Below are positions 1,115-61,562 of a stretch of 64,000 nucleotides of DNA, piece by piece. Location of the stretch: assembly GCA_043799545.1 (NCBI GenBank), contig JAZDNO010000005.1, forward strand, positions 649 to 64,648, in the 5' to 3' direction. The notes under the pieces are model-generated. The model was not told the origin of the DNA and made no database searches. It saw nothing but the letters and a program-made list of their open reading frames with translations. The translations under genes were made by a program, and so were the position numbers. Position 1 is the stretch's first letter. Each line of letters begins with the position of its first letter. The stretch is from Methanobacteriota archaeon (GTDB taxonomy: Archaea > Thermoplasmatota > Thermoplasmata > SG8-5 > DAIRED01).

Positions 1115-1137
1115 ATCATGCATGCGGGGGGGAGACC

Positions 1138-1996: not shown

Positions 1997-2012
1997 CGAA
2001 CACATCAATAAT

Positions 2013-6633: not shown

Positions 6634-6743
6634 CGGACCAGTTTACGTAGCCCCTATATTTATCAATTGTGTTTAAACAGGCATGCTCGAAACGCATCCG
6701 GGATGAACTGGCGTGTCCAAGTACGGCGTTTGTCTGTTTTAGA

Positions 6744-14435: not shown

Positions 14436-14533
14436 GCTCATGGATTATACGATGTGCTACCACGTTTCTAGAACCCATCTAGGAACGCGAGCCACCCAAA
14501 TATTTTATACTGGTTTGCCGTAGGACTGGCGTC

Positions 14534-22561: not shown

Positions 22562-25500
22562 TCAATCGGTTTTTCTGCGTTCGCGCTTGAAAAATATCAT
22601 CGATGCCGAAATTATGAAACACGCTGGAACGAAAATCGTATCGTATTCCGGTATCACCAGGCTTGCCGCATCCTCCGAGCCCGAGAGCAATCTTCCCGTC
22701 GAACTCGTATAGTTCAACCGTGCGAGATTATCGATGATACCACTCTGCGCGGTCGCGTTAATTTGTATGGTTACCGTGAACGAATGCGGCCCTGGCGCGA
22801 CATTCACGAAGTACCATCCATAGGTCAGACCGCTTGAGCCGGATGGAGCCATGCTCGACGAAACGAATGCCACGCCTTGAGGGAGCGTGTCGTTCACCCA
22901 AACGTTGGCGGCGATCGTGCTTCCCGTATTGTTATAAAATATCGTGTAAGTCACGACGCTCCCCGCGAGTGCCTGAGCGACATCAGCGACCTTGGCTACG
23001 ATAATCGTCGGTCTGGTTGCTGTGATGTTTGCCCAATCCGTGGTTCGAGCAAACCTGCTTCCGAGGGCGTCATTGTAGTCCGCGGTTCCCGTGTTGTTCA
23101 GCGAGGCGCCGTCCGCGATCGACGTGCCCACCCGGACAGTCAAAGACAGGGAATTAACCGTGTCGTGGGCAATCGTGCCGAAGTACCAAGCAACATTTTG
23201 GCCCGCAACGCTTTGCGGTGCTGGGACTGCGCCTTCGAAAGACGCGCCCGCAGGCATCGTGTCGTTGACCCAGACGCGCTTCGCGTTGCCGTCGCCGGTG
23301 TTGTTGAACCATATGGTGTAAGTCACAAGCTCGCCTACCTCGACGGTGGACAAGTTCACGGATTTTTGAACGACGATTATGGGCATCTTGCGTTCATTGG
23401 GGGCACGCCTGGTGGGCCCTTCGGGTACGAGCCATCCGTTGTTGCTGACGTAGAAGTCGTTCGCATCGCTGTCTGTGTCGAGCGGCATGCCGGTGTCCTC
23501 GTGCTTGAACCGGCTCCATGTGCTCCCGGCTGCCACAGATGGGTACGTCGTATCGTCCACCAGCGTACCTCCTGCATCGTAAAGCCTGACCTGTCTGCCG
23601 TTGTCGGGAAACGTATTCTTGGGAACGTCCACTGCAAGATATTCCGTGCCCGAGCCCCAGGCGCCAACTGTCGTCCCAGCGGGATAGGTGTACTGATAGT
23701 TGTTACCCACGCGAATCCTCCAGTCACTGATATCGATTACAGCTGCTGTCGGGTTGCACAATTCGATCCATTCGGTGTTGGGGCGTGTGGATATTTCGTT
23801 TATTACGACGTTGTCTCCGGCGGGAGTTCTCGTATTCGAATCCGATGCGGGTTTGACGGCAGAATCCGAAGCTCCTTGCCAGTTCTCCGCGATGGTAAGC
23901 ACCCTACCATTACTCGTCAACGCGGACCCTGCGAGAATCTCTATGGAACCTCTCGACGCCGCAGCCTTCGCCGCTCCCGCGTAAAGCCAGGATTCAGAGT
24001 TGCCGCCGCACGCGTAAAAGCTGGCGTTTTTCACTCGTCCCCCAGAGCCACGAACCGTGATGGCCCTTTCAGCGCCAAAACCAACCCGGATGGGCACGCC
24101 TGTCGACTGGTCGCCATCGGCATCCAGGTATATCGTGATGACGTCTTCCCCTATCATCGGAGGTAGCGAGACCGGGCCAATGTATATGCTGATGCGGTCG
24201 CCACGGTATTCGACCGGAAAATCAGAGGGGATTGTGGTGTTCAACCAAATGTCGGAACCCTTCGGCCAATCAAGGATTCCGTCCCCGTCCCTGTCTCCGC
24301 TTTCAAAGGTGTCGTTTACCCCGTTGTTGTCGAAGTCCAGGGGGAACGAGTCCGACGAATCCGGCACGCCGTCGAGGTCGCTGTCCACGTCTCGCGGAAG
24401 CGATACTGGCGCGGTTTCAGGTCGTGGCAAAAAAGTTGGGAATTTCGCTCCGCCCAGCGCCCTTCCATCCACATCGAGTTTTACGTATGAGCCGCCCCCA
24501 TAAGAAACGTGAGAAAAGCCAACCAAATCGACATCCGGGCAATAGAACGGGTCGCGCTCGTCCAAAAAGACGTCCCCCGATGGCAGGGAAACCGGAATGA
24601 TATCGTCCCAATCCGAGAGATATCCGTCTATTGCGAACCCCGAGCCTCTCATTTTATGCACGAAGGGTTCGGAATCGATGACTGTCAATCCAACGTCGTC
24701 CAAGCTTACGCTCGCCATCTCCACAGATAGGCCGCCATCCGACGTGGAAAGGTTCCCTCGGAATTTGATGACCACAGTAGAATCGGAGGGTATGTCCAAA
24801 TTCCCGACGAAGAACCGCGCAATCGAATCGTTCACAAAGATGGGGTCGATTACGGAGTTATCGATTTCAAGCCAAGGCGTTCCGACCAAGGCGGCTGAGG
24901 TCAGTCCCGATCCCTCGAACGCCAGTTCGAAACCGCCTTCCACGTCGCCGCTGCTGAACAATTCGCACTCGAGAAGTGTGCTGGGCCCAGAATCAACGGA
25001 AGGCAGACCAGCGAATGAGCGGCAAAACGTCTTCGACGGCGTCCCCGAAAGCGGACAGTCGAGGACATCCTTGCCTCCGGCGCCGTCAGTGGCGGCGATT
25101 ATGCAGCGAATTTGAGGTGAGAAGCCGATAATCGAAGCCTTGCACTCCACCATCGGACCCTCCGATGCCAGGTTTATTGAGGTCGGGCAGCCGAAACCGT
25201 TCCAATCGTCCCGCTCGGCGTTCGAATCGAACCGTTTCAAGACGCGGGTCGCCGCATTTCCATCATACCCCATTGCCTCTACGAGATAATCGGCTCCGAT
25301 TCCGTAAATCGGATAGCCGGTTTGCGCATCTCCGTCGGAATCAATTAACGCGTAGATGGCCGAAGCGGTATTTCGCACCCGAGGCGTATCCGTAAAAACG
25401 TTGCCCCGCATCAAGACGAATAATGAAACGGTATCACCTTCGCAAATCATCCCGCCCTGCACAATGTCGCTGCTCTCCGAAGGGCAATCGCCTGGCAAAT

Positions 25501-27484
25501 CGTTGACGACGTAGGGGGCCGTCCACTCACCGAAGCGTCCGTCGATACCATTGTTCGAAGATGTGGGGGCGAACATGCTTGAGATTAGGGGCACGGTCAG
25601 AAGAGCCAGCACACACGCGGAAATTAGCAGGGTCGCCACCCAAACGCGCTGCGTCTCCGAGCGCAGGTATCGCCTGCTCGTTTTGTAATCAGCGAGCCCA
25701 TTGGTCATTCCCGTCCCGTTTACAAGGCCACGGAAGTCTGATAAATCAGCGAGCCCATTGTTAAGCCCATTTGTGCGACCCAGCCCGTTTGACAGGCCAT
25801 TCGTTCTCCCGAGCCCGTTGGTACGCCCCCGCAATCCGTTGGTCAAACCGTTGGTAAGGCCGTTGGTGCGCCCTCGCAACCCATTCGTGAGGCCGTTGGT
25901 CCTTCCTCTTCCAGCGCCGTTGACGGGCCCTCCAGGTTTTGCATCCAAGCCGTTGGTACGCCCCGGCCCCGCGGCTCGCGCCGCCTCGAACTCCTTTCTC
26001 ACGACCGCCTCGATGAGTTCTCCGTTGGTCAATCCGACAGCCTTGCCGCGTACGAGCCCGTTCGCCAACCCCCGCTTGCGCCCCTCGGGCGAATCGTGAC
26101 GCTTGCGCTCCCCGGCCTTCTGCTTATCGGCGCCCAGAGCCTTCTTGAACGCTTCCAGGTCATGCAAGAGTTCCCCGCTTTCCTCGCGCTCCTCGACCTC
26201 GTTTATCGCCTCCTCTGCGATGGTCATGAGGATGTCCAGTTCCTCCTCTTCCACGCCAAGGCCGCAAATGGGGCATATCCCCGCCTCGTCCAGAAATGCG
26301 CCGCAGCGCTGACACGAATTCTCGTCCAGAAGCTTGGCAAGAGCGGCCAGCCCGTCCAGCTCCCTCTCGACGGATTGGGAATCGACCGTTGCGCTCCGCT
26401 GGGTTCCGCATATCGGGCATGTTGGCTTTTGGCTGCTCACGAAAGCCCCGCAATCCGGGCACATCTCAAGGTCGCCTGCGGGCACAGTCTCGAGTTTGTC
26501 CTCGTGCAAGACCCTTTTTAATATCGTTGACATCTCTGCCGGGTCGAGCCTCGCACCGCAAATCATGCAATTGGGGCGTCCCTTGTCAACAAAGGCGCCG
26601 CAACCGGGGCACACGCCGATGTCCATCGCGGTTGTCTGAAGCACATCCCTGAGCTTGTTTGGCGTTGACGCATCCCTCGACTTGTCCTTGCCGCAGTTCG
26701 GGCATGCCGAGGCGCTCGCCGAAATCATGGCGCCGCAGTTCGCGCATAGGTCCGGCGTCTCGATTTCGATGAGGGGCGTCTCCTCGCGTGCCGTCCCGTC
26801 AATTGCTGGTTTGCCTCCGCACAGCGGGCACGACCCCTTTCCGATTGTGAAGAACGAGCCGCATTCGGCGCAAACAGTGACTGACGGTAGCTCCTCCTCA
26901 TCCAGGTCCAACTCTTCATTCTCGGCGAGGAATTCTAGTATGACGCCAGCCGCATCCGCAATCTTCGGGACGCTGCTTTTCATGCGGCCGCTCGTCGCGT
27001 GGAACGACGAATCCACGACAACGATGAGCATGGCGCCCGTCTTTTGGGCTTTCCCCGTCATGGATTTGGCAATTTCCAGGAGGTCTTCACCCTCGCCGAA
27101 AGTCGCCAGCGCTGCGGGGATGACGTCCGCGATTATCAGGAGATTCTCTTTGCCCTTCCAGGACCGAAGGATTTTGTTGAGGGCGACCTTGACATTCAGC
27201 AGGTCTCGGGCACACCGCGTTACCACATCTCCCGCCTCCACCCCGATTACCCTCTCTGTGTTGTGGGAATACCAGTCTATGACCTTCAGCCGTCCATCCG
27301 CAACTGCCACTATTTCCGGTTCGAGGAGGTCGTCCGGGGGCAATCGCGACGTGATGACTGCGACGTGCCATTTTGACGGGATGGCCAGGGAAAGAAGCTC
27401 CCTGGCGAAGATCGCGAAGCCACCTGCCTGGTCTATCTCGACTGAAAGGACAGGTCTCGATTCGCTCCTTTCTTTCTCGCTCAT
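22562..27484 (-). CDS. Giant (1640 aa) type-I-like membrane protein 1: cytoplasmic zinc-ribbon arrays, TNGL repeats, one TM, extracellular TSP3/LTD/DUF11 domains, C-terminal PEF-CTERM-like anchor.
   Basis: Cytoplasmic part: an N-terminal alpha/beta domain without Walker A, five CxxC…CxxC zinc ribbons, and (G)RTNGL tetrapeptide repeats. TM helix VWVATLLISACVLALLTVPLI. Extracellular part: Asp-rich Ca-binding TSP3-like motifs (DVDSDLDGVPDSSD…DRDGDGILD), one lamin-tail domain (NVVINEISTRPNTEWIELCNPTAAVIDISDWRIRVG), two DUF11-type repeats (VTYTIWFNNTGDGNAKRVWVNDTMP). The C-terminus PEYDTIFVPACFIISASMIFFKRERRKTD is a PEF-CTERM-like signal. The start is 1 nt after the stop of the upstream KaiC gene. 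Confidence 0.75.
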   Translation of the reverse strand: MSEKERSESRPVLSVEIDQAGGFAIFARELLSLAIPSKWHVAVITSRLPPDDLLEPEIVAVADGRLKVIDWYSHNTERVIGVEAGDVVTRCARDLLNVKVALNKILRSWKGKENLLIIADVIPAALATFGEGEDLLEIAKSMTGKAQKTGAMLIVVVDSSFHATSGRMKSSVPKIADAAGVILEFLAENEELDLDEEELPSVTVCAECGSFFTIGKGSCPLCGGKPAIDGTAREETPLIEIETPDLCANCGAMISASASACPNCGKDKSRDASTPNKLRDVLQTTAMDIGVCPGCGAFVDKGRPNCMICGARLDPAEMSTILKRVLHEDKLETVPAGDLEMCPDCGAFVSSQKPTCPICGTQRSATVDSQSVERELDGLAALAKLLDENSCQRCGAFLDEAGICPICGLGVEEEELDILMTIAEEAINEVEEREESGELLHDLEAFKKALGADKQKAGERKRHDSPEGRKRGLANGLVRGKAVGLTNGELIEAVVRKEFEAARAAGPGRTNGLDAKPGGPVNGAGRGRTNGLTNGLRGRTNGLTNGLTNGLRGRTNGLGRTNGLSNGLGRTNGLNNGLADLSDFRGLVNGTGMTNGLADYKTSRRYLRSETQRVWVATLLISACVLALLTVPLISSMFAPTSSNNGIDGRFGEWTAPYVVNDLPGDCPSESSDIVQGGMICEGDTVSLFVLMRGNVFTDTPRVRNTASAIYALIDSDGDAQTGYPIYGIGADYLVEAMGYDGNAATRVLKRFDSNAERDDWNGFGCPTSINLASEGPMVECKASIIGFSPQIRCIIAATDGAGGKDVLDCPLSGTPSKTFCRSFAGLPSVDSGPSTLLECELFSSGDVEGGFELAFEGSGLTSAALVGTPWLEIDNSVIDPIFVNDSIARFFVGNLDIPSDSTVVIKFRGNLSTSDGGLSVEMASVSLDDVGLTVIDSEPFVHKMRGSGFAIDGYLSDWDDIIPVSLPSGDVFLDERDPFYCPDVDLVGFSHVSYGGGSYVKLDVDGRALGGAKFPTFLPRPETAPVSLPRDVDSDLDGVPDSSDSFPLDFDNNGVNDTFESGDRDGDGILDWPKGSDIWLNTTIPSDFPVEYRGDRISIYIGPVSLPPMIGEDVITIYLDADGDQSTGVPIRVGFGAERAITVRGSGGRVKNASFYACGGNSESWLYAGAAKAAASRGSIEILAGSALTSNGRVLTIAENWQGASDSAVKPASDSNTRTPAGDNVVINEISTRPNTEWIELCNPTAAVIDISDWRIRVGNNYQYTYPAGTTVGAWGSGTEYLAVDVPKNTFPDNGRQVRLYDAGGTLVDDTTYPSVAAGSTWSRFKHEDTGMPLDTDSDANDFYVSNNGWLVPEGPTRRAPNERKMPIIVVQKSVNLSTVEVGELVTYTIWFNNTGDGNAKRVWVNDTMPAGASFEGAVPAPQSVAGQNVAWYFGTIAHDTVNSLSLTVRVGTSIADGASLNNTGTADYNDALGSRFARTTDWANITATRPTIIVAKVADVAQALAGSVVTYTIFYNNTGSTIAANVWVNDTLPQGVAFVSSSMAPSGSSGLTYGWYFVNVAPGPHSFTVTIQINATAQSGIIDNLARLNYTSSTGRLLSGSEDAASLVIPEYDTIFVPACFIISASMIFFKRERRKTD

Positions 27485-27485
27485 G

Positions 27486-28187: not shown

Positions 28188-28742
28188 TCAATCCCCTCCC
28201 ACGGTCTTTTCTGAAAACTCGTGATCGTAACCTGCGGAGGTCATCAGCCCGATGGTCGCGCGCCTGCCGAGCCGGGCGACCGAGCCAGCTACCAGAGCTG
28301 TCAAAAGGAGGTCGCGCTCCCTTTCTCCAATAGCCTCGTTCTCATTAAGCGCCTTTAATGCCTGGCTTGCATTCGTGTTCAATAATCTGACGAGCGCCTC
28401 CCAATCCGCCCCCAGCACCCCGGCCAGCCGCTCCAAGAAACCGGCCAGCGCTCCTGGGTGGTTGATGATGGATGATGGTTTGCAGCCAGCTAGGTCTATC
28501 TCAATTTTGACATTGGATGCGACTAGCCTGTACTCGAACGCCTTGCGCCTTCCGGCACGAAGGCGCCTTTCCGCGATGCCTGCGCTCGCAAGAGCCGACA
28601 AATGGGCGACGGCCGTGGCTATGTGCAGGCTCAAATCCTCCGCAATTTCGCTCGCGCTTTTCCACTCGCTGGTCGACAGGGCACCCGCGATGCGCAGACC
28701 TCCCTTGCTGCCTAGGGCGTACAATTTTTCAACAGTGCTCAT
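28188..28742 (-). CDS. Winged-helix (ArsR-like) DNA-binding protein.
   Basis: N-terminal wHTH (LYALGSKGGLRIAGALSTSEWKSASEIAEDLSLHIATAVAHLSALASAGIAERR). The stop abuts the KaiC start. Confidence 0.5.
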   Translation of the reverse strand: MSTVEKLYALGSKGGLRIAGALSTSEWKSASEIAEDLSLHIATAVAHLSALASAGIAERRLRAGRRKAFEYRLVASNVKIEIDLAGCKPSSIINHPGALAGFLERLAGVLGADWEALVRLLNTNASQALKALNENEAIGERERDLLLTALVAGSVARLGRRATIGLMTSAGYDHEFSEKTVGGD

Positions 28743-28842
28743 GGGTTCACTTCAATTTTATTAAAGCTCGAAATAGTATTTATCGAGTACAAATAACGCA
28801 ACAATATATAAATAACTCTCGTCACACTTCAATTTTATTAAA

Positions 28843-31800
28843 CTAAAACTGTATTTTTCGTCGGATTCTGATTAATACCATTAATGAAGCAAGAATAGTG
28901 AGTGTTGGCACTGCGAAATCACCGAACTCTGGCACGACGACCATTGCCAAATCAGAGCTTCCGGGCAACGACCAACCGTTTGACGTTGTGTAATTGAGAT
29001 CGACAAGGTTGGAGATTATGCCCGACGGGCATGTCGCGTTTACCTGCACGGTGATGGTGAACGAGTATGCGCTAGGGGCAACGTTCGTGAAATGCCAGCT
29101 GTAAGTCAGACCGCTGCTCGACGACGGTGGAACGCTCGCTGACAGATACGTGACGCCGATAGGCAGAGTATCATTTATCCAAACATCCCCGGCGTTTCGG
29201 CTGCCTGTATTGTTATACCATATCGTATAGGTAATCAGGCCGCCCGCCTGCACGTCCGTAACATCCGCAACCTTGGCGACTGTTATCTGTGGGCGCCTGC
29301 AGGTGACGATGGCCGTGTCGGAGCTCGGCGTCATCGGCCTCTGCAGCTGGTCCGAGTAGGCAAGATTCGCCACGTTTGTCAGGACCGTGCCGTCGGCGAC
29401 CGTGGGGGCGATTGTCGCAAATAAGGCGATGGAATTGACAGAATCGTGAATTACATTTGCGAAGTACCAGGTCAGAAGTTGTCCGCTGACGGCTGCCGGC
29501 GCGACGCTGGCGCTGACGTACGTCATGCCCGCTGGTAGCGTGTCGTTCAACCACACGCGCTTCGCATTTCCGTCGCCGGTGTTGTTGTACCAGAGCGTGA
29601 ATGTGACGATGTCGCCGGGCGCTGCCTCGGCCAAAGAGGCCGTCTTTTCAACGCTCATCACCGGGCGCTTGCGGTCGTTAGGCGCCGCCGGAGTCGGCCC
29701 TTCGGGCACCAGCCAGCCGTTGTTGGAGATGTAGAAATCATTGGAATCGACCCCCGTGTCGAGCGGATAGCCCGTGTCCTCGTGCTTGAACCTGGACCAG
29801 GTCTGGGTTGCCAGGATGCCGCCTGGGTAATTGGTCTCGTCTATCGTGGTCCAGAAGAACCCCGTCTGCCTCTGAAGCCTAACCCGGCTCCCCCCATTTG
29901 GGAAGTCGTTGCCACCGCCGGTGTTGGCTACGAAATATTCCGAGCCAGAGCCCCAGGCACCGAGCACAGTGCCAGCCGGGAAGGTGTAGGCGGTTGAGAA
30001 GAAACCCACCCTGATGCGCCAGCCGCTGACGTCGACAGGCGAACCAGTGGGGTTGCACACTTCGACCCACTCGTTGGTGTCCCCCTGGACCGATATTTCA
30101 TTGATGACTATCCTCGACAGCGGATCCGTCACGACGACGGACGCCTGCGCAGTCGTGCGCGGCAGCGACGATCCAGCCAGGTTTTTGTAATCCCCCGTGA
30201 CCGTGTTCGTCAGGACCGTTCCGAGGGGAACCGCACTGCCTATTTGCGCTTGGACAGTTATGAAGTGGTTCCCCGGCGCCACGGCAACGAAGTGCCAGTA
30301 CTGGACTTGACCGGACGTGGCGTTCGGGAGGACGCTCGACGAAACAAAGGTCGTCCCGACCGGGAGAGTGTCGTTGAGCCATACGTGGCCTGCCTCGCCC
30401 GACCCCGTGTTGTTGTAATGTATTGTGTAGGTGATGTCGTCGCCGGGGCTGGGAGTGGGCACATCGACGACCTTCGCGACGGCGATGGATGGGGACGGCG
30501 CCGAAACGACGATGGTCCAGGCGCTGGAAGATGACGGCAGCTGGCGGGATGATTGGTCCGTGTAGGCGAGGGCCGCGACGTTGATGAGAGCCGTTCCGAC
30601 CGGCGTTGATGATGGAATGTGGGCGACCAGCGTCAGGAAATGAGCTCCTGGCGCCACGCTCGTGAAATACCAACCGTATGTCTGCCCCGCGACGGACACG
30701 TATGGTGTGCTGGACGAAACGTAGGTCATTCCGACGGGAAGCGTGTCGTTGAGCCAGACGTGCGCCGCGTTGCGGCTTCCTGTGTTGTTGTAATGGATGG
30801 TATAGGTGACGTCGTCCCCCGGCGCGGCTATGGAAAGGTCGGCGATCTTGACGACGGTTATCTGGGGCCGAACGCAAGTCACAGCCACAGCGTCCGAACT
30901 GGACGCCATCGGCCTGCGAAGCTGGTCCGAGTATGCCAGGCTCGCCGAGTTGGTGAGGACCGAGCCATCGACGACGGACAGATCGATGGTGGCGGAGACG
31001 CTGAGGGAGTTGACCGTGTCGTGGATCACGTTGGCGAAGTACCAGGTGAGCAGCTGGCCGTTTATCGAAGATGGGGCGACGCTGGCGCCAGCGTACGTCA
31101 TGCCCGTCGGCAGCGTGTCGTTGAGCCACACGTTCTTCGCGTTACCATCGCCTGTATTGTTGTACCACAGGGTGAACGTCACCAGGTCTCTGGGAGCCCC
31201 TTCAGGGGCGTTGCTCGATTTCTCGATGGCCATCACCGGGCGACTTCTGTCGTTGGGCGCGCCCCTCGTCGGCCCCTCGGGCACAACCCAGCCATTGTTC
31301 GAGATGTAGAAATCATTGGCGTCGTTGTTCGTGTCGACCGGCTGCCCGGTTTCCACATCCTTGAAGCGTGACCACGTCTGCCCGTTGACCGTCGCTGGGT
31401 AATTGGACCTGTCGATTTCGGCGCCGGTGCCCGTGGTCAGGCGGACGACGCCTCCCGCGTCTGGAAACCGGTTGTTCTGTGTCATGGTGGCAACTAGGTA
31501 TTCCGAACCCGAGCCCCAAGCTCCGATGGCGGTTCCCACAGGGAACGTGTACCTGAGTTGGTTGCCGGAATAGATGCGCCAGCCGCCTATGTTTATCGCA
31601 GAGCTTGTGGGGTTGCAGAGTTCGACCCACTCCGGGTTGGGCCTGGCTGCCAGCTCGTTTATTACTATCCTCGATGCGGGCGACGCGACCGTGACGGAAA
31701 CTTGCGATACTGTGGGCGGCAGCGAGACGCCCGCAGAGTCCTTGAATGCGCAAGTGACGAGGTTTGTCAGAATGGTTCCGGGCGCGACGCCAGCGCCCAC

Positions 31801-34800
31801 CTGTGCAGACAAGGTGACCTGGTAATTCCCCGGCGCGACATTCAGGAAGGACCAGAAGACGTTTTGGCCCGCGACGGTCGCGGGTGGTGGGGTGGCCGAG
31901 ACGTACGACATCCCGACAGGCAACGTGTCATTCAGCCAGACGTTCGAGGCCGTGCCGTCGCCGGTATTGTTGTAATATATCGTGAAATCGACGTAATCGC
32001 CTGGCGATGGCGTTGACGATAGGGCGACTTTTTTTACGGTTATCGACGGAAGAGGCGCCTGCACGGTCACAGTCCAGCTGTCTGTCGATGTGCCCAGGAA
32101 CCTCGAGAGCTGGTCGGTGTACTGAAGCTGGACGTTGTTGACGAGGACGGTTCCGCTCGTGACACCAGCATTAACGGTGGCGCTCACGGTGAACGAGTGC
32201 GTTCCCGGCACGACATTGTTGAAATACCAGCGGTAAGTCTGACCCGCGAAAGAGGCGTAGGGTACGCTTGAGGCGGAGTAGGTCGTGCCCGCCGGGAGCG
32301 TGTCGTTGACCCAAACGTGGCGCGCGTTGCCGTCGCCGGTATTGTTGTAGTAGATTGTGTAAACAATGGCCCCACCAGGCGGGGCTGTGACCCTGTCGCC
32401 CGCCTTGTCCACAGCAATCATCGGCGCGGTCCTGTCGTTGGGCGCCCTGAAGGTCGGCGAGTCAGATATGTAGTAGTCACCGACGGTGTCGGTGTCCATC
32501 GGCATCCCCCAAGTCGCGTTCTTGAAGCGTGCCCAGCTCTGGCCGGCGAGGAGCGCTCCGTATGTGAAGGAATCGACAGTGGCCCACGTCCCGGCCACTT
32601 GAAGGAGTATTGTCGCGCCGCCGTTGGGCAGCTCGTTCCCGTTTCCGTAGAACGTGGCGGCATAGTATTCGGTTCCCGAGCCGAACGCCCCCAGGATTGT
32701 GTTGGCGGGGAAAACGAACAGGTTCGAGCTCCCCATCCTCAGGCGCCAGCCGCCTATGTTTATCGGGGATGAAGTCGGGTTGCAGAGCTCTATCCACTCG
32801 CCGTTGTTCGGCAAAACCACAATCTCGTTTATCACTACGTTGTCCCCCGCGGGAGAGCGCGTCTGAGACACGAAGACTGAAGTCGAGAGCGCCCCGTCGC
32901 TCACATCCGAGCTTCCGTCTGAATCGCGCATCTCAACCGTCACCGCGGTCTGCGGTCCCACGAGCCATTGGGGCAACCGCCCCTCGAACCGCCAGAGGTC
33001 GTTGCCCACCGGAACATCCGGGTCAGTCTCCCTCCAGGGAATCCGGCCTTGGCCCGGGTCGTATGCCGCGAGGGAAGTTCCCAGAACAATCCCGCCCCGC
33101 CCCGTCACTACCAGGGCGTGGTCGGCTCCCAGCCCGCCTGGTACTCGCGCACCGGTCGAAGCGTTTCCGTCTGAGTCAATCCACAGCAGTAGCGAGTCCT
33201 CGCCGAGCCTCTCGCGCTCCCTTTCCGTGACTGGTCCGACATAGACGCCGGATGATACGTTCGCGAAAGGAGCGGGGAAATCGACTGGCGTGGTTGCGTT
33301 CAGCCACAGGTCGGGGCCGTAAGGATATTCGACGAGCCCGTCCCCGTCCTTATCGCCGTCCTCCATGGCATCGTTCACGCCGTCGTTGTCGAAATCGAAT
33401 GGCATGGGGTCCTGTCCGTTGGGCACGCCATCCATGTCGTTGTCGGAAGCGTTCCAGTCTGGTGCCGGAGCTGGGCTCCCGCCTTCCCTCCTGATGGAGT
33501 ACCTCGGGAAAGCCGAACCCCCTAGGGCTGTGCCCGAGACCTGCACGAAGAACTCGCCGCTGTCCAGCAAGGCTGACGAGACGAGGTCGACGTTCCGGTT
33601 CTCCAGCAGCCCGTTACCCAGGGTAGTCGTCACGTCACCAAGCGAATCGGGGGACTTGGGCACCCCGTTCCAGTCCGCGAAAGCGCCGTCGATGTGCACA
33701 TCCGTCCAAAGACCGAGGGAAATCGTCGATGGGGCGAGTTTCGAGATGTGCACGTCGCCCGCCTCCGCGCGCACGATGCGGCTCAGGGTCAGGCCAGTTG
33801 TGTTCGGCAAAACAGCGCCCTGGCCCGCACTGCCAGCAATGGTAATATTTACGACTTCGTCTTCCGCTAGGGCCAATGGCAGAGCGAACGTGATACCTAG
33901 GATGGCGTTGCTCTGGGACTGCGTGAATGCGAGGGGCTCGATCGCCCCGCCAGCGCGAATTGCCGCTATCGAAGAGACGGAAGTGGCGTCGGGGGCGTTG
34001 CCAATGCGCGTCAGCTCCAATCCCATGATGGAGGAAGCACCGCCAGAAGAATGCACCGTCACACGCTGCACCTCGAGCACTCCAGGTTCGGACAAAGACT
34101 CCGATTCCGGGCCGCGCTCGAAGGCTTTTGCCACCGCCAGGCCAGGGGACACCGGGGACTCGGCCATGTCCTGATAGCCGGAGCCGTCGCTCGTGCAGAC
34201 CAGCACCAGCGGCGAGGTGGCATTCGAGGGCAGAAACGCCTCGACCTCGACTTCAGAGTTCGAGACTGCAACGTTCGCCGCCGCGCCCGAGTCGAACCCG
34301 AGCCAGTTGGTCCTGTTCTTCGATCGGTCGAAAGCCCTCAGGACGGCGCCCCCGTCCCCGCGCCACCCGGAAACGTCAAGCAGATAGTCGGCACCAATAG
34401 AACCGATAGAATAACCCGTTAAAGCGTTCCTGTCCGCGTCGATGAATGCATACATGGACGCAGTGGAGTTCAGCTCGGGAGTATGCTGGCCGGCAAGGGC
34501 GCTCCCTCTCACCGAAGCATAAACGAAGAGCTTCTGGTTTTCATAACCAAGTTTAATCTGGTCGATTACAACATCGGCGTTCGCAGATGCGGGCGTGAGC
34601 GCATTGCGGTACCCGGCGACGTTCTCCCAGTCACCGAAGTATCCGTCCACGGAAAGCGTCGTGGCCCTGGGCTTTCCGAGGTCCAGCATGGGGGAGAACA
34701 TCATGAGAGCCACCGCAAGGGCCATGAGCCCGGCCATCCAGTGCCACTGGTTCCGCTGCTCATCCCTTCTCCGGTAAGGTGCAGGAGCGGTTCCGTTGAT

Positions 34801-37341
34801 GAATCCCGTGCCGTTTATCAGGCCGATGCCGTTGACGAGCCCGGCGCCGTTCACAAGGCCCTGGCCGTTCGTGAGGCCGCCCGAATATCCGAGGCCATTG
34901 ACCAGCCCGTTGACCTTGCCCCGTCCGTTGACAAGACCGTTGATGCGGCCGTTGGTCCTGCCACGGCCATTGACCAGCCCGTTAATCCTGCCGTTGGTCT
35001 TGCCGCGCCCGTTGACCATGCCATTGACTCGGCCATTGGTTCTGCCTCGTGCCAAACCGTTAACCATTCCGCCCACGGGCTTTCCCCTCTGACCCTGGGG
35101 CGTGCTGGAAACGCGAGATTTCGGTTGCTGCCCCGGCATGACTGCGGCCGTGGCCGGCTCCGTAAGCTCGCTGATTCGCTCGTACGACAGCCTTATCGCT
35201 TCATGGAACGACCTGGTGGCTTCGGCGCTCTGACCCCGCTTCTGCAACAGTTCCCCCCTCTCTTGCCAGAGTCTGTCGTTTTTCGGGTCGTTTTTAAGGG
35301 ATTCCTCTATGAACCAAAAGCGCGCGTCGAGATTCTCCAGGTCTCTGGACATCTCCTCCTCGTCGACCGCCCCCCCGGCGTCGCGCATCTTGGCAATCAA
35401 TTCCAGAGCTCTGGCCCGGTAATCTGTTTCGCGCTCCGGAGACAGTTCCGCGGCCTTGTCGAAGCAATGCATGGCTTCGTCCAGTTGCTCCGACGCCATC
35501 ATGGATACGCCGCGCTGGAACCAGTCGTCGGACGTCTTCGGCTCTTCGCTATTGGGCTCGGGCTTCGCTTCGCCGGGCAGTGTCTCTTTCTCTACTTTTT
35601 TCGTTACTGGCTTTGTTGTGGCGGTCACTTCGGCTTCCGGGGCGCCCATGCCGGACCAGCGCTGTATGAAATCCTTTGAAATGCCTCGCCTCTTGGATGA
35701 CGTATCTTGCCTCGACGTGTCTGGAACCTTCCCGTCCAGCTTCGCCGTGAGCTTGCTGATGCGGCAATCCAGGCACAGGCTCTCGCCCTCCTTGACACGT
35801 TTGCCGCAGACCTCGCAACCGCGCTCTAGCTCATTCTTTGCCAGCACTTCAACCAGTCGGCTACTTTCCCGTGTGCGCTCCCTGGCGGCGGGGGCGGTCT
35901 TCCCGCCCATGCCGATGGCATATTCCAGGGCTCCGCAGACGTTGCAGTATTCGCCCTCCCCCTCGTAGCCGTCCCCGCAAGTCTTACAGGTCTTCCCCGC
36001 CGGATGGCAAGCCGGGCATGCTGCACCGGCTGCTGTGATGGGCTTACCGCAGTCTGGACACAATGGTGGGGACGGTTCAGGGATGTTTATTTCCGGGGCG
36101 GGTCGGGCTATCTCTGTCTGGCTGAAATCCGCGCCGCAAGCCTGGCACCGGCTGGCCTTTTCCGAAAGGAAGGCTCCGCAGTCCGGGCAGAGGTATAACT
36201 CGACCGGCTCCTCTTCCTTCTCTGCGGGAGCCTTCTCGACGAGCGGCATCTCGACGCCGTCGTCGGGCTCGAAGACTGCTCCGCAGCTAGGGCATTTGTC
36301 CGCGCCTTCCGCAGCCAGCGAGCCGCAACCTGGGCAAATGAAGAGCGACTTTTTGTCCTTGTACCAGAACCCGTCCACATCCTTGCCAGCATCAGCCCCG
36401 GGTTCGGTTTTCTCGATTAGCGGCAGTTCGACCTGCTCATCATCGACGAATTCAACCCCGCACTTGGGGCACAGCTTCGAGCCGGCGGCGGCAAGCGAGC
36501 CGCAACCCGGGCACAGGAACAAGCTCGCACCAGCCTTGTACCAGTGACCGTCGACGTCCCCTTTGTCCTTGACCTCTGGACCGCTGGTAGTTTGCTGGGT
36601 CTCCATCTCCAAAGGCATCTCCACGGCTTCTTCTTCGACGAAATGGGCGCCGCAGCGCGGGCATCCCTTCGAGCCAGCAGCTGCCAGAGAGCCGCACGAC
36701 GGGCATAGGAAAAGTTTCGCCTCATCCTTGTACCAGAATCCGTCTTCCGCATCCTCTTTCTTGGTTTCCAAAGGAACCAATGGAATGTCCACCGTTTTTT
36801 CGTCCGGTTCGAAAACCGCTCCGCACGACGGACATTTTTGCGCATCCGCAGCCGCAAGAGATCCGCATGATGGACAAAGGAAGAGCTTTGCCTCGTCCTT
36901 GTACCAGAATCCGTCATGCGCTTTTTCTTCAATCTTGTCGGGCTCGGTTTCAAGCGGAAGCTCGACCTCGTCCCCTTCCTCGAAGTGCACGCCGCACTTG
37001 GGGCAGCTCGCCGCCCCAGACGATGCCAGGGAACCGCAGGCCGGGCATATGAAAAGGCTGGATTTTCCACTCGACCACCAGCTATCTGCTTCTTCTTTGG
37101 GCTTCTCTGCGCCGATGGCCTCCTTGGCCGCCTTGATGACGTTGTCCGCAAGCGCCAGGCCCATGCCGCCCACTTGTGCCAGGTCTTCGCGGTTGGCTGC
37201 GGCGATGTCGTCCAGAGTCTTGAACCCGGCGCCCTCCAACGCCTTGGCCCTCGATTTGCCCACGCCGGGCAGGGTTGTGAGCTTCCTTGTGGATTTGTCT
37301 TTCGACATCACCCATTCTATATTGGTCTCTATATAAACCAA
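28843..37341 (-). CDS. Giant (2832 aa) membrane protein 2, a paralog of giant protein 1: HhH, six zinc-ribbon repeats, VNG(L/R) repeats, TM, extracellular TSP3/three LTD/many DUF11 repeats, PEF-CTERM.
   Basis: Cytoplasmic part: N-terminal HhH pair (TLPGVGKSRAKALEGAGFKTLDDIAAANREDLAQVGGMG), six near-identical units DGFWYKDEAKLFLCPSCGSLAA…KCPSCGAVFEPDE, further Cys clusters, TPR-like helices, and VNG(L/R) repeats. TM helix MAGLMALAVALMMF. Extracellular part: a TSP3-like DNDMDGVPNGQD…DKDGDGLVE motif, three lamin-tail domains (e.g. RIVINELAARPNPEWVELCNPTSSAINIGGWRIYSG), at least eight DUF11 repeats (IVYTIYYNNTGDGNARHVWVNDTLP). The C-terminus VVVPEFGDFAVPTLTILASLMVLIRIRRKIQF is a PEF-CTERM signal. 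Confidence 0.8.
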   Translation of the reverse strand: MVYIETNIEWVMSKDKSTRKLTTLPGVGKSRAKALEGAGFKTLDDIAAANREDLAQVGGMGLALADNVIKAAKEAIGAEKPKEEADSWWSSGKSSLFICPACGSLASSGAASCPKCGVHFEEGDEVELPLETEPDKIEEKAHDGFWYKDEAKLFLCPSCGSLAAADAQKCPSCGAVFEPDEKTVDIPLVPLETKKEDAEDGFWYKDEAKLFLCPSCGSLAAAGSKGCPRCGAHFVEEEAVEMPLEMETQQTTSGPEVKDKGDVDGHWYKAGASLFLCPGCGSLAAAGSKLCPKCGVEFVDDEQVELPLIEKTEPGADAGKDVDGFWYKDKKSLFICPGCGSLAAEGADKCPSCGAVFEPDDGVEMPLVEKAPAEKEEEPVELYLCPDCGAFLSEKASRCQACGADFSQTEIARPAPEINIPEPSPPLCPDCGKPITAAGAACPACHPAGKTCKTCGDGYEGEGEYCNVCGALEYAIGMGGKTAPAARERTRESSRLVEVLAKNELERGCEVCGKRVKEGESLCLDCRISKLTAKLDGKVPDTSRQDTSSKRRGISKDFIQRWSGMGAPEAEVTATTKPVTKKVEKETLPGEAKPEPNSEEPKTSDDWFQRGVSMMASEQLDEAMHCFDKAAELSPERETDYRARALELIAKMRDAGGAVDEEEMSRDLENLDARFWFIEESLKNDPKNDRLWQERGELLQKRGQSAEATRSFHEAIRLSYERISELTEPATAAVMPGQQPKSRVSSTPQGQRGKPVGGMVNGLARGRTNGRVNGMVNGRGKTNGRINGLVNGRGRTNGRINGLVNGRGKVNGLVNGLGYSGGLTNGQGLVNGAGLVNGIGLINGTGFINGTAPAPYRRRDEQRNQWHWMAGLMALAVALMMFSPMLDLGKPRATTLSVDGYFGDWENVAGYRNALTPASANADVVIDQIKLGYENQKLFVYASVRGSALAGQHTPELNSTASMYAFIDADRNALTGYSIGSIGADYLLDVSGWRGDGGAVLRAFDRSKNRTNWLGFDSGAAANVAVSNSEVEVEAFLPSNATSPLVLVCTSDGSGYQDMAESPVSPGLAVAKAFERGPESESLSEPGVLEVQRVTVHSSGGASSIMGLELTRIGNAPDATSVSSIAAIRAGGAIEPLAFTQSQSNAILGITFALPLALAEDEVVNITIAGSAGQGAVLPNTTGLTLSRIVRAEAGDVHISKLAPSTISLGLWTDVHIDGAFADWNGVPKSPDSLGDVTTTLGNGLLENRNVDLVSSALLDSGEFFVQVSGTALGGSAFPRYSIRREGGSPAPAPDWNASDNDMDGVPNGQDPMPFDFDNDGVNDAMEDGDKDGDGLVEYPYGPDLWLNATTPVDFPAPFANVSSGVYVGPVTERERERLGEDSLLLWIDSDGNASTGARVPGGLGADHALVVTGRGGIVLGTSLAAYDPGQGRIPWRETDPDVPVGNDLWRFEGRLPQWLVGPQTAVTVEMRDSDGSSDVSDGALSTSVFVSQTRSPAGDNVVINEIVVLPNNGEWIELCNPTSSPINIGGWRLRMGSSNLFVFPANTILGAFGSGTEYYAATFYGNGNELPNGGATILLQVAGTWATVDSFTYGALLAGQSWARFKNATWGMPMDTDTVGDYYISDSPTFRAPNDRTAPMIAVDKAGDRVTAPPGGAIVYTIYYNNTGDGNARHVWVNDTLPAGTTYSASSVPYASFAGQTYRWYFNNVVPGTHSFTVSATVNAGVTSGTVLVNNVQLQYTDQLSRFLGTSTDSWTVTVQAPLPSITVKKVALSSTPSPGDYVDFTIYYNNTGDGTASNVWLNDTLPVGMSYVSATPPPATVAGQNVFWSFLNVAPGNYQVTLSAQVGAGVAPGTILTNLVTCAFKDSAGVSLPPTVSQVSVTVASPASRIVINELAARPNPEWVELCNPTSSAINIGGWRIYSGNQLRYTFPVGTAIGAWGSGSEYLVATMTQNNRFPDAGGVVRLTTGTGAEIDRSNYPATVNGQTWSRFKDVETGQPVDTNNDANDFYISNNGWVVPEGPTRGAPNDRSRPVMAIEKSSNAPEGAPRDLVTFTLWYNNTGDGNAKNVWLNDTLPTGMTYAGASVAPSSINGQLLTWYFANVIHDTVNSLSVSATIDLSVVDGSVLTNSASLAYSDQLRRPMASSSDAVAVTCVRPQITVVKIADLSIAAPGDDVTYTIHYNNTGSRNAAHVWLNDTLPVGMTYVSSSTPYVSVAGQTYGWYFTSVAPGAHFLTLVAHIPSSTPVGTALINVAALAYTDQSSRQLPSSSSAWTIVVSAPSPSIAVAKVVDVPTPSPGDDITYTIHYNNTGSGEAGHVWLNDTLPVGTTFVSSSVLPNATSGQVQYWHFVAVAPGNHFITVQAQIGSAVPLGTVLTNTVTGDYKNLAGSSLPRTTAQASVVVTDPLSRIVINEISVQGDTNEWVEVCNPTGSPVDVSGWRIRVGFFSTAYTFPAGTVLGAWGSGSEYFVANTGGGNDFPNGGSRVRLQRQTGFFWTTIDETNYPGGILATQTWSRFKHEDTGYPLDTGVDSNDFYISNNGWLVPEGPTPAAPNDRKRPVMSVEKTASLAEAAPGDIVTFTLWYNNTGDGNAKRVWLNDTLPAGMTYVSASVAPAAVSGQLLTWYFANVIHDSVNSIALFATIAPTVADGTVLTNVANLAYSDQLQRPMTPSSDTAIVTCRRPQITVAKVADVTDVQAGGLITYTIWYNNTGSRNAGDVWINDTLPIGVTYLSASVPPSSSSGLTYSWHFTNVAPSAYSFTITVQVNATCPSGIISNLVDLNYTTSNGWSLPGSSDLAMVVVPEFGDFAVPTLTILASLMVLIRIRRKIQF

Positions 37342-37402
37342 TTATAATGGGAGAAAAGAGATATGACGACATAAAATGGTCATAATGATTACAATATTTT
37401 GT

Positions 37403-38032
37403 TCATTGCCAAAAAAGTGTAACGTACGGGTTCAAGCCGAACCGCAACGTCGTCTGCCTGCCCTTCCCCCCGATTATCACGTAGACCTCCGCGGGATCGC
37501 TCTTAATCACCTTTGGCTGGAGACCCAGGACGGAAAGCTTCGAAAGGGTCCCGTCCAGCAGGCCCTTTCTGCGGTCAAGGTAGGCCTCTCCGGAATTGGA
37601 CAGCAGCTCGGAAGGGTAGTACCTCACGCTCCGCCCGTCGCGCGAAGTTAGGGCCAGCCCAAGCTTTCCGAGGTCCCGCAGAACCCTCGAGACCGATTGC
37701 CTCGAAGAGCCGAGCTTCAGGGCAAGTCCGTCTTGGGCGAGCCCGGGATTGGTAATCACCTCTCTCAGCGCGGCCCTCCTATCCTCATTGGCGAGGAAGG
37801 CGAAAATCTCGAATTCCTCATCCCTCAGCATCCCGACCGGATAATACGCGGCGTGGCCCTTGAAATTGCGCGCCGCCAGCAGTTCGGCCTTGGCGAGCTT
37901 CCTCAGGTGCCATTTAATCGATGCTGGGGACAGCGACATGGCGCTTGCGATTTGAGACCTGATGGAGCATGGCCTGTGCGAAAGGAACGAAAGGACTTCC
38001 GCGTCGTTCTCCGACATGGCAAGCCCGCGCAT
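37403..38032 (-). CDS. Transcriptional regulator with two winged-helix (MarR/ArsR-like) domains.
   Basis: First domain: VLSFLSHRPCSIRSQIASAMSLSPASIKWHLRKLAKAELL. Second domain: LREVITNPGLAQDGLALKLGSSRQSVSRVLRDLGKLGL. Confidence 0.55.
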   Translation of the reverse strand: MRGLAMSENDAEVLSFLSHRPCSIRSQIASAMSLSPASIKWHLRKLAKAELLAARNFKGHAAYYPVGMLRDEEFEIFAFLANEDRRAALREVITNPGLAQDGLALKLGSSRQSVSRVLRDLGKLGLALTSRDGRSVRYYPSELLSNSGEAYLDRRKGLLDGTLSKLSVLGLQPKVIKSDPAEVYVIIGGKGRQTTLRFGLNPYVTLFWQ

Positions 38033-38105
38033 CTGGCTCGGACCGCGCGCTCCGCCCTCTTTCTTCAGCGCTTCAAGCAGGGCCGCCCCGACGCGCTTCG
38101 TGCGC

Positions 38106-38993
38106 TCACCCCGCCTTGTACTCAGCCGCTATGTCTTCCAACAAATCCTCCGGGTCAACGCTCTTAAGGTCCGAATCCCGAACCTCCGCCAGAGCCTTCT
38201 CAATCCTGTCCCGGACCTCCTTGGGAAGCAACGGCGAAATCCTTCCGAGCCCTTCCATGAGCTGGGTGGAAACCCGGTGCTCGTCCCTGACGGGCTCGCC
38301 TCCCCGGGCGACCACGATGCCGAGCCCCTTAATTATGCTGTACGGATGCGACCGCTCGCTGTGCCTGCTGTTCCTGCACTTGACTATCTTGAACCTGCGC
38401 TCGGCGCCTTCGTCCAGCGCCCTGTACCTCAGGTGGATGACGCAATCGGCCAGATACATCGGGATGACCGTCTCGTTTCCGGTCAGGTCGCTCGCCGACC
38501 CGTGCTCCTCCAAGGTCGCCAGTACCGTTCCCACCTTTCGGGTCTCTTTGAGCATGAAACCGATGAGGTCCCGCTGCTCGTATCGGTCTGCGTTCGCCCA
38601 AAGCACGGGCGTGAGCGGGTCGACGACGATTCGGGCGTTCGCCCCCTTCCAATCCTCGACGAAGGAGGGCAGCTCCTTCTTGATGAACGTCGCAAAGTCT
38701 CGCCCAGAGGCGTCTATGAAAACGAGCTGCTCGCGCTCGATGTATTCGAGGATTTCGCCCCACCCCATCTCGATGGCCTCTTTGATTATCTGCTCCTTGT
38801 TCTCGTCGAGGCTCACGAAGATGCCTTCCTGTCCCTCCTCCAGTCCCCTGCGGATGAATTGCGTTGCGAGGGTTGTCTTGCCCGCGCCGGAGGCCCCGAT
38901 GACGACTGTGGTGGAACTCTCGTTGATGCCGCCGTCGATGAGCGCGTTCAGGCCGTAGACTCCGCTTCTTATTTTGCGCATCCGCTTTACCAA
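38106..38993 (-). CDS. KaiC-like/RecA-superfamily ATPase with a C-terminal extension.
   Basis: Walker A (GASGAGKTT), the GVYGLNALIDGGINES N-terminus, Walker B (RIVVDPLT). Confidence 0.75.
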   Translation of the reverse strand: MVKRMRKIRSGVYGLNALIDGGINESSTTVVIGASGAGKTTLATQFIRRGLEEGQEGIFVSLDENKEQIIKEAIEMGWGEILEYIEREQLVFIDASGRDFATFIKKELPSFVEDWKGANARIVVDPLTPVLWANADRYEQRDLIGFMLKETRKVGTVLATLEEHGSASDLTGNETVIPMYLADCVIHLRYRALDEGAERRFKIVKCRNSRHSERSHPYSIIKGLGIVVARGGEPVRDEHRVSTQLMEGLGRISPLLPKEVRDRIEKALAEVRDSDLKSVDPEDLLEDIAAEYKAG

Positions 38994-55741: not shown

Positions 55742-55769
55742 GATATATCACTCAGGGGATTGGCGAGAC

Positions 55770-56399: not shown

Positions 56400-56422
56400 C
56401 CCACGAAGCGCATGTGGGTCGG

Positions 56423-58970: not shown

Positions 58971-58972
58971 CA

Positions 58973-59857: not shown

Positions 59858-59870
59858 CGGAGGGAATGGC

Positions 59871-60752: not shown

Positions 60753-60763
60753 GGAGGTAGGAG

Positions 60764-61555: not shown

Positions 61556-61562
61556 GGTCCAG

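Follow-up and report, generated by a model that had tools for sequence, protein, structure and literature searches.

Two paralogous gene triplets pairing KaiC-like ATPases with predicted giant surface proteins in a Thermoplasmatota archaeon are candidate transmembrane signalling modules

Why would an archaeon encode KaiC-like ATPases and winged helix-turn-helix (wHTH) proteins side by side with predicted surface proteins of 1.6 to 2.8 thousand residues? The question is raised by six minus-strand genes in a 64,000-nucleotide stretch (the window; positions count from its first letter) of contig JAZDNO010000005.1, assembly GCA_043799545.1, from a Thermoplasmatota archaeon. An earlier note, made from the sequence alone, had read these genes as a tandemly duplicated three-gene module and an unrecognised sensing or surface-remodelling system. 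Profile searches and surveys of related loci lead to a modified reading, to which we give about an even chance: the region would hold two paralogous modules for KaiC-centred transmembrane signalling, each conserved independently of the other.

The six open reading frames were confirmed at the coordinates first assigned to them, and they are open throughout the 4.9 kb of giant gene G1 and the 8.5 kb of giant gene G2. Housekeeping genes border the cluster: on the upstream side those for PdxS and an M32 carboxypeptidase, on the downstream side those for DUF7121 and SHMT. In gene order, the type B triplet consists of KaiC-2, a double-wHTH gene (wHTH-2) and G2, and the type A triplet of wHTH-1, KaiC-1 and G1. 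The features are as follows.

38106 to 38981, minus strand: KaiC-2, K2-clade KaiC-like ATPase with a single domain; the reading frame runs on to a TTG at 38993
37403 to 38032, minus strand: wHTH-2, two winged-helix domains, ArsR/MarR-like (Pfam matches at residues 8–52 and 86–134)
37330 to 37337, minus strand: TATA-like box TTTATATA, about 25 nucleotides (nt) upstream of the G2 ATG, read by eye
28843 to 37308, minus strand: G2, 2821 residues counted from the ATG at 37308
28825 to 28842, minus strand: distal copy of the 18-nt repeat TTTAATAAAATTGAAGTG, candidate operator for wHTH-1, with a TATA-like box downstream of it
28805 to 28812, minus strand: TATA-like box before wHTH-1, read by eye
28748 to 28765, minus strand: proximal copy of the 18-nt repeat TTTAATAAAATTGAAGTG, 5 nt upstream of the wHTH-1 ATG
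28188 to 28742, minus strand: wHTH-1, ArsR/Phr-like winged helix with a helical C-terminal region of about 100 residues
27486 to 28187, minus strand: KaiC-1, K1-clade KaiC-like ATPase with a single domain
26900 to 27484, minus strand: G1 head (residues 1–195), predicted inactivated KaiC (iKaiC) domain, Walker A lysine lost
22562 to 27484, minus strand: G1, 1640 residues

The tight type A junctions read as had been claimed. The wHTH-1 TGA directly abuts the KaiC-1 TTG, upstream of which lies GGAGGGG, and the KaiC-1 TGA is followed by a single nucleotide and then the G1 ATG; by their layout the type A genes are translationally coupled. Type B is not tightly coupled in the window, with gaps of 73 nt and, between wHTH-2 and G2, about 94 nt. 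The G2 start is most likely the ATG at 37308 and not the TTG at 37341, because that TTG adjoins the TTTATATA box and homologues start at the HhH domain. For KaiC-2, the ATG at 38981 is likewise the most likely start, not the TTG at 38993. The box, picked by eye, suggests that G2 has a putative promoter of its own and a near-leaderless mRNA.

G1 and G2 are 31% identical over 1579 residues (E 5e-171), which bears out their description as paralogues. Profile searches also backed the other domain calls: Pfam found KaiC in both ATPases, two wHTH domains in 37403–38032, the double zinc ribbon DZR, lamin-tail LTD and DUF11 in both giants, and HhH and TPR in G2. The two giants had been credited with the same domain grammar throughout; this stands from the zinc ribbons to the C-terminus and fails for the heads, KaiC-like in G1 and HhH plus TPR in G2. 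Their parts are listed below, those of G2 being numbered from the TTG at 37341.

G1, cytoplasmic (predicted): iKaiC domain 1–195; five zinc ribbons 205–407; Asn-Gly repeats 496–595
G1, first transmembrane (TM) helix 616–634; ectodomain 639–1228, containing a pair of IDGxFxDW domains plus an Asp-rich DxDxDG stretch
G1, C-terminal: LTD 1221–1314; two DUF11 1370–1595; PEY motif, TM helix and basic tail 1610–1640
G2, cytoplasmic (predicted): HhH 19–74; nine zinc ribbons 99–526; TPR 606–720; Asn-Gly repeats 750–849
G2, first TM helix 868–888; ectodomain 890–1501 with two IDGxFxDW domains
G2, C-terminal: three LTD and two to three DUF11 modules 1496–2800; PEF motif, TM helix and basic tail 2800–2832

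The first hydrophobic helix begins at residue 616 in G1 and 868 in G2, behind the iKaiC or HhH domain and the zinc ribbons, and all CxxC pairs lie N-terminal of this single internal helix. Judged by the positive-inside rule and by where the zinc ribbons lie, the N-terminal 600–880 residues are predicted to be cytoplasmic and the remainder to lie outside. Neither giant has an N-terminal signal peptide or an S-layer family match in Pfam or NCBIfam. With so long a cytoplasmic region ahead of the internal helix, the proposal that these are not simple S-layer genes held up.

The region outside begins with a beta-rich ectodomain of about 600 residues, comprising two IDGxFxDW-type domains and an Asp-rich stretch, and continues with LTD plus DUF11 module sets, one in G1 and three in G2. 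Identity is 54% between the C-terminal module of G1 and the last of the G2 modules, against about 30% between the ectodomains. A neighbour-joining tree of the ectodomains was star-like (all pairs 21–32% identical) and cannot date the G1/G2 ectodomain split relative to the modules.

Both proteins close with a tripartite C-terminus of PEF motif, hydrophobic helix and basic cluster: G2 ends in VVVPEFGDFAVPTLTILASLMVLIRIRRKIQF and G1, with the PEY variant, in VIPEYDTIFVPACFIISASMIFFKRERRKTD. Such an ending is common to most relatives. The PEF-CTERM model TIGR03024 (cut-off 23) was not reached by G2 (12.4 bits) or by P0009 (18.5 bits), a G2 homologue discussed below, and gave no match to G1; no archaeosortase gene was found among the window reading frames scanned. 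PEF-CTERM is recognised by archaeosortase C (PMC5244752). G2 (PEF) and G1 (PEY) resemble PEF-CTERM proteins in motif, helix and basic tail, and differ from them in the sub-threshold TIGR03024 scores and in a long cytoplasmic N-terminus with an internal TM helix in place of a signal peptide.

The basic Asn-Gly repeats (window 25700–25999 and 34795–35094, minus strand) take the forms GRTNGLTNGL and xNGx, with 14–17 NG per 100 residues, and matched no known family. At all related loci they adjoin the signal-anchor helix on its cytoplasmic side, and short members of the family lacking zinc ribbons have them too.

The head of G1 (about 190 residues) had no direct Pfam match and no pairwise similarity to KaiC-1 in BLASTP; its relation to KaiC was detected solely by profile and fold methods. 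Alignment by hhalign of a head profile from four orthologues with the KaiC profile gave a probability of 68% (E 4.9e-5). In that register, QAGGFAI lies opposite the Walker A motif (GPAGSAKS) and LLIIADV falls on Walker B, and the P-loop position holds no Lys or Ser/Thr in G1 or in its orthologues. With the head profile, an exhaustive HMMER search picked up 150 cluster representatives, of which 77 reached E ≤ 1e-10; the apparent rarity of the head in an indexed search (two matches) was a tool artefact. In the matches sampled (P0018, P0019, P0020, P0023, P0024, P0036, P0042, P0045 and P0063), the head profile overlapped regions assigned by Pfam to KaiC, DUF7504, DUF835 or MEDS, at E 1e-36 to 1e-14. 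The head was also placed in the RecA/KaiC fold. DUF835 and MEDS have been classed as iKaiC domains by Galperin, Makarova and Koonin (PMC5847659). By these profile comparisons, and because the P-loop lysine is missing, the G1 head is an inactivated KaiC-superfamily domain, a divergent variant missed by Pfam. Its KaiC-like nature had been overlooked in the earlier note, which saw only an N-terminal alpha/beta domain.

The two ATPases scored well above the gathering cut-off of Pfam KaiC PF06745 (26.6 bits), KaiC-1 (233 residues) at 169.4 bits and KaiC-2 (291–295 residues) at 132.4 bits, and each has one KaiC domain. Neither matched circadian KaiC: the NCBIfam circ_KaiC scores were 91.5 bits for KaiC-1 and 57.9 bits for KaiC-2 against a cut-off of 546. 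With single domains and scores so far under this equivalog cut-off, they are not, by sequence, bona fide circadian KaiC proteins. KaiC-2 has a canonical Walker A motif (GASGAGKT) and an acidic helical C-terminal extension, and its match to NCBIfam KaiC_arch_3 stayed below cut-off. KaiC-1 has the deviant motif GPAGSAKS, in which Ala replaces Gly before the Lys; it is kept in five of seven K1-clade members, the other two having GPAGSGKS. The TLEES and LVVDSLS motifs are retained in KaiC-1, and its C-terminus, KMRFTRHDPYKHPF, is conserved.

KaiC-1 and KaiC-2 are only 29% identical. A neighbour-joining tree together with pairwise identities placed them in two separate clades: K1, marked by the GPAGSAKS motif and the C-terminus KMRFTRHDPYKHPF, whose members at five other type A loci are 48–58% identical to KaiC-1, and K2, whose members at loci L015, L018, L025, L037 and L083 are 51–71% identical to KaiC-2 with a canonical Walker A and an acidic C-terminal helix. 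This split of the KaiC genes follows the two types of giant. The two regulators have no detectable similarity to each other (E 0.62), and the gene orders of the triplets differ, so that the idea of a tandemly duplicated module goes too far. The low KaiC identity and the dissimilar wHTH proteins instead mark the triplets as two anciently diverged paralogous modules lying side by side, with no recent duplication.

Are the triplets conserved elsewhere? The earlier note had rested its case on KaiC and wHTH genes neighbouring such giants in other genomes as well, and this linkage was found for both types. An alignment of the G1 head searched against 185,579 species genomes yielded five loci, counted as four new sequences along with duplicates of L001 and L009. 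The head-bearing loci besides the window are L001/L012, L009/L014, L010, L011 and L013, from metagenome-assembled genomes (MAGs) assigned to Thermoplasmata, Thermoplasmatota or Methanomassiliicoccales. The order wHTH-1-like gene, K1-type KaiC gene, head-bearing giant recurred in all five of the other genomes that have a G1 head, and at all these loci the genes overlap or abut. Across the six genomes the type A proteins are only 25–58% identical and gene order is identical; type A is, on this comparative evidence, a conserved operon. At L011 even the layout of the window recurs, with the C-terminal end of a second LTD/DUF11/PEF giant directly upstream of wHTH-1.

Upstream of this operon, the 100-nt spacer between G2 and wHTH-1 contains two exact copies of the 18-nt direct repeat TTTAATAAAATTGAAGTG, against 0.01 expected in 64 kb, where no others occur. 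Both copies form an imperfect palindrome, CTTtAAT-N3-ATTGAAG, with a TATA-like box lying between them. At L011, AACTTCAATAGAATTGAAG occurs twice, 79 nt apart and positioned as in the window, giving a spacing of 77–79 nt for the pairs at these two loci. At L001 and L009 alike, two palindromes of the TTTCAC...GTGAAA type sit in comparable places; L013 shows a single full palindrome with, by eye, a distal half-site; and at L010 no palindrome was scored, one being seen by eye only. We regard the palindromes as the phylogenetic footprint of a candidate site for a dimeric regulator, presumably bound by wHTH-1 itself.

The wHTH-1 sequence gave only sub-threshold matches under the curated Pfam and NCBIfam cut-offs. 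A profile built from six orthologues matched ArsR-family repressors in the PDB, including CadC (E 1.6e-5) and, over nearly the full length, 2p4w from P. furiosus (E 7.7e-5; profile 8–174, chain 3–182). The likeness to Phr/ArsR archaeal repressors such as P. furiosus Phr (2p4w) thus extends along almost the whole protein and, putatively, to palindromic sites overlapping the promoter; wHTH-1 differs in its low sequence similarity to them and in falling under the curated cut-offs, and it shows no sign of metal or heat sensing.

The type B triplet was traced by a metagenome scan with the ectodomain alignment, which gave 203 relatives, of which 80 loci were kept and scanned with local hidden Markov models. 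The triplet was found at L015, L018, L025, L037, L046 and L083 (three clusters after de-replication), as a K2-type KaiC of 290–303 residues, a double-wHTH protein of 235–240 residues and then an ectodomain-bearing giant. Pfam upheld the KaiC and wHTH calls on samples, and at L037 and L083 the wHTH gene ends 4 nt ahead of the giant. Conserved adjacency or fusion of KaiC or iKaiC domains to predicted input and output components across genomes, which defines a module in the sense of Makarova et al. 2017, was therefore found for both types.

How far does the coupling to KaiC reach beyond these triplets? Of the 46 non-redundant ectodomain genes for which 1.2 kb or more of upstream sequence was available, five have a same-strand KaiC-superfamily gene directly upstream, and three of the five also have wHTH2. 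Other forms of the association were seen as well: the giants of L024 and L068 have an N-terminal DUF835 head, that of L024 being preceded by a K1-clade sister, and at L021 a MEDS/KaiC-like gene lies 4 nt upstream of the ectodomain gene. From this distribution, the coupling of the ectodomain family to KaiC-type domains arose repeatedly and independently. Seen from the head, 38 of the 150 head-profile representatives have at least 1000 residues; 35 of these 38 have a predicted TM helix, the first at residue 420–1020 or thereabouts in nearly all, 30 carry the IDGxFxDW motif and 23 a PEF-like C-terminus. In the full HMMER search, some 30–35 clusters of giants join a KaiC-like head to variable ectodomains; those on G1-type heads include LTD/DUF11 (P0017 and P0025), FG-GAP (P0063) and MG2 (P0033 and P0045). 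One protein, P0026 (2200 residues), bridges the two head types, with a G1-type head at 11–149, HhH at 190–244, zinc ribbons and TPR at about 700–730, which suggests that the cytoplasmic architectures of G1 and G2 derive from a common form with more domains.

Several candidate relationships were set aside. At six short-ectodomain loci a KaiC gene lies about 3 kb upstream on the opposite strand, and the link was dropped, two unrelated genes of about 450–480 residues standing between. Matches with HhH-DZR-TPR architecture (P0003, P0004, P0007, P0011 and others) are not G2 orthologues, having only the cytoplasmic module in common and mostly no KaiC neighbours. In word-indexed searches, the G2 ectodomain gave no matches and G1 residues 1–814 were flooded by zinc-ribbon matches.

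Related arrangements were also noted at individual loci. L018 encodes, at 1004–2707 (plus strand), about 3.3 kb upstream of its type B triplet, a 568-residue protein with two KaiC-superfamily domains, the first KaiC/DUF7504 by Pfam and the second matching the G1 head profile. L009 (= L014; MAG GCA_049970095.1) encodes at 4471–7047 (minus strand), about 1.7 kb upstream of its type A operon with one gene between, an 858-residue protein that begins with a zinc ribbon, continues in a long coiled coil and ends in a KaiC/DUF7504 domain, a further fusion of zinc ribbon and KaiC. At L002, a 655-residue multi-wHTH protein (13797–15764, plus strand) lies directly downstream of a 1246-residue HhH-DZR-TPR protein with no KaiC nearby, so that linkage of wHTH to the HhH-DZR-TPR module is possible without KaiC.

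What might the modules do? In the reading that we give an even chance, each giant bitopic protein would serve as receptor and scaffold. Its fast-evolving ectodomain would be exposed outside, held by the internal signal-anchor helix and the PEF-CTERM-like C-terminal anchor, and its cytoplasmic side would present the zinc-ribbon array together with the inactivated KaiC domain (G1) or HhH and TPR (G2). The dedicated single-domain KaiC-1 or KaiC-2 would dock on this cytoplasmic part, KaiC-1 probably co-oligomerising with the iKaiC head in type A, and the nucleotide or phosphorylation state of the ATPase would control wHTH-1 or wHTH-2. The wHTH protein would be the output, and wHTH-1, acting on the paired palindromic candidate operators around its own promoter, would regulate its own gene. 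The genes and their domains, the kinship of the G1 head with KaiC, the conservation of both ordered triplets, the separate KaiC clades and the conserved operator-like palindromes are established by the comparisons above; protein–protein contact, outside-in direction, autoregulation and topology are inferred. A conserved transmitter joined to a variable sensor is the usual design of receptors, and outside-in sensing is favoured because the cytoplasmic transmitter is conserved and the ectodomains vary. The further step, that these proteins form a new class of archaeal transmembrane receptors with a three-component outside-in pathway, a KaiC-based counterpart of two-component or extracytoplasmic function (ECF) signalling with interchangeable ectodomains, we put forward only tentatively, as possible but on the doubtful side.

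A number of observations weigh against signalling of this kind. In the survey above, 41 of the 46 ectodomain genes have no adjacent KaiC gene, and P0009, the closest full-length G2 homologue outside the triplets, has an upstream TPR gene and no KaiC. The ectodomain, to judge from these two observations, works without KaiC in most lineages, and the association with KaiC is specific to sub-families. LTD and DUF11 are typical of adhesin-like or structural surface proteins and not of known sensors, and the AlphaFold model of the ectodomain had a predicted local distance difference test score (pLDDT) of 36.5, too low to point to a ligand-binding fold. The model of the head domain reached only a low-confidence pLDDT of 55 and its hhalign probability was only the 68% given above. 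Given its deviant Walker A motif, KaiC-1 may be a weak ATPase or a mere nucleotide binder. In the window, G2 seemingly has its own promoter and lies about 94 nt from wHTH-2, and every relative comes from an uncultured organism.

Part of this evidence would suit a flow of information from the inside outwards, in which KaiC and wHTH govern the production, membrane insertion, assembly or conformation of a giant adhesin or envelope protein, KaiC serves as a chaperone or switch for assembly by acting on the cytoplasmic head, and the ectodomain is effector and not sensor. LTD, DUF11, the Asp-rich, calcium-binding-like motifs and the PEF-CTERM-like anchor are all characteristic of surface proteins with structural or adhesive roles. 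Moving 1000–1900 residues across the membrane behind a cytoplasmic domain of 600–880 residues without a signal peptide may need help, and the translational coupling of KaiC-1 and G1 suggests stoichiometric co-production. There is also precedent for KaiC-like control of surface machinery in ArlH, which modulates ArlI, and in CirA. Such a scheme nevertheless leaves a DNA-binding protein with conserved candidate operators as the first gene unexplained, simple autoregulation aside; 41 of 46 family members are made without a KaiC neighbour; and variable ectodomains on a conserved head suit sensors better than one fixed assembly task. We judge it rather unlikely, though still deserving serious attention. 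Lower still we place a loose neighbourhood in which wHTH and KaiC are ordinary cytoplasmic regulators (for example of energy state or time) of surface-protein genes without touching the giants, whose head domain and zinc ribbons would have unrelated roles; this we consider distinctly improbable. KaiC-like genes are abundant (four in the window), the type B gaps there measure 73–94 nt with a TATA-like box of its own before G2, and P0009 and many HhH-DZR-TPR proteins lack KaiC neighbours, all of which would be expected under it. Yet type A order is identical, with overlapping genes, in six genomes whose proteins are so divergent, the giant itself carries a fused KaiC-superfamily domain, and links to DUF835 and MEDS evolved independently within the one family of ectodomains. 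For type A, the fusion and the conserved order of overlapping genes make a neighbourhood by pure coincidence unlikely; for type B in the window the case against it is weaker, given the gaps and the G2 TATA-like box.

That the giant reading frames are assembly chimeras or misjoined repeats, and the module no real genetic unit, hardly deserves credence, even though many internal repeats (zinc ribbons and LTD/DUF11 modules) could mislead assemblers. At the DNA level those repeats are only 60–81% identical, the frames are uninterrupted over 4.9 and 8.5 kb, and G+C content is steady (54–62% in 2-kb windows against 54–63% in the whole window). Full-length equivalents with the same end-to-end architecture occur in independent assemblies, at L011 (2119 residues), L013 (1798), L015 (2216) and L018 (2706) and in P0017 and P0025, and the chimerism that the earlier note named as a possible refutation can be discounted.

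Archaea have few classical two-component systems, and the proposal that KaiC-like ATPases serve there as the main signalling hubs still rests mostly on genomic inference. KaiC and iKaiC domains were proposed as archaeal signalling hubs by Makarova et al. (2017, mBio), as cited in PMC5847659 and PMC10983859, and to call the present system unrecognised was therefore too strong. As that proposal is summarised in the citing papers, KaiC-like ATPases and iKaiC domains (DUF835 and MEDS) stand beside or are fused to predicted input and output domains including wHTH, and both modules fit this description. Compared with the hubs so summarised, the partner here differs, being a giant bitopic surface protein of 1.6–2.8 thousand residues with a zinc-ribbon array, Asn-Gly repeats, an ectodomain of about 600 residues, LTD/DUF11 modules and a PEF-CTERM-like anchor. 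In the searchable literature, a scope outside which Makarova et al. 2017 itself falls, neither this architecture of giant proteins nor the triplets were found described.

The archaellum regulators ArlH (FlaH) and CirA differ from the present case in that no archaellum genes lie nearby and the partner is a surface protein, not ArlI or ArlJ; nor are the KaiC proteins of the window orthologues of ArlH (44 bits against a cut-off of 215). With bacterial single-pass receptors (ToxR/CadC-type, anti-sigma/ECF and sensor histidine kinases) the modules would share a logic of variable extracytoplasmic domain, one TM helix and conserved cytoplasmic transmitter, as well as a dedicated transcription factor and probable autoregulation. 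They differ in using a RecA/KaiC-superfamily transmitter and in having the transcription factor as a separate protein. Histidine kinase, receiver and sigma/anti-sigma domains were not found in the six proteins, which gave no HisKA, HATPase or REC match in Pfam or NCBIfam.

The locus offers a concrete, conserved wiring diagram for the KaiC-hub proposal, with a KaiC-headed surface protein, a dedicated KaiC ATPase and a wHTH protein with candidate operators. If the proteins interact, they would provide defined partners and DNA sites for the biochemistry of KaiC-based transmembrane signalling, and a role would be explained for the common archaeal proteins that combine zinc ribbons, a TM helix, an ectodomain and PEF-CTERM. 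If they do not, the analysis still annotates a new iKaiC variant and two conserved Thermoplasmata operons.

Elsewhere in the window, which holds four KaiC-like genes, K3 (48796–49491, minus strand; Pfam KaiC 138 bits, with a weak GvpD P-loop match) lies near a CobA/BtuR adenosyltransferase gene and is 21–30% identical to the other KaiC sequences compared. The fourth, K4, belongs to a third KaiC-centred cluster at 58446–63887 (plus strand), made up of a weak wHTH (58446–58970), a V4R-domain protein (58973–59857) and K4 itself (59871–60752), which is 39% identical to KaiC-2 and has a C-terminal helix of the same type. K4 is followed by a 263-residue protein with no Pfam match, Roadblock/LC7-like by eye, and finally by a 774-residue protein with an N-terminal CxxC, a coiled coil and, by eye, two C-terminal wHTH-like segments. 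Two convergent TPR-repeat genes encoding 416 and 440 residues (44664–45914, plus strand, and 45911–47233, minus strand) overlap by 4 nt at their 3' ends. The histone-deacetylase/acetoin-utilisation family is represented by two genes less than 5 kb apart (52031–53110 and 55760–57505, both plus strand), the product of the second having an N-terminal extension of about 245 residues without a Pfam match. Near the start of the window, 2013–5054 (plus strand) encodes a 1013-residue protein in which an M28 peptidase domain is joined to a GH130-like segment, an unusual pairing.

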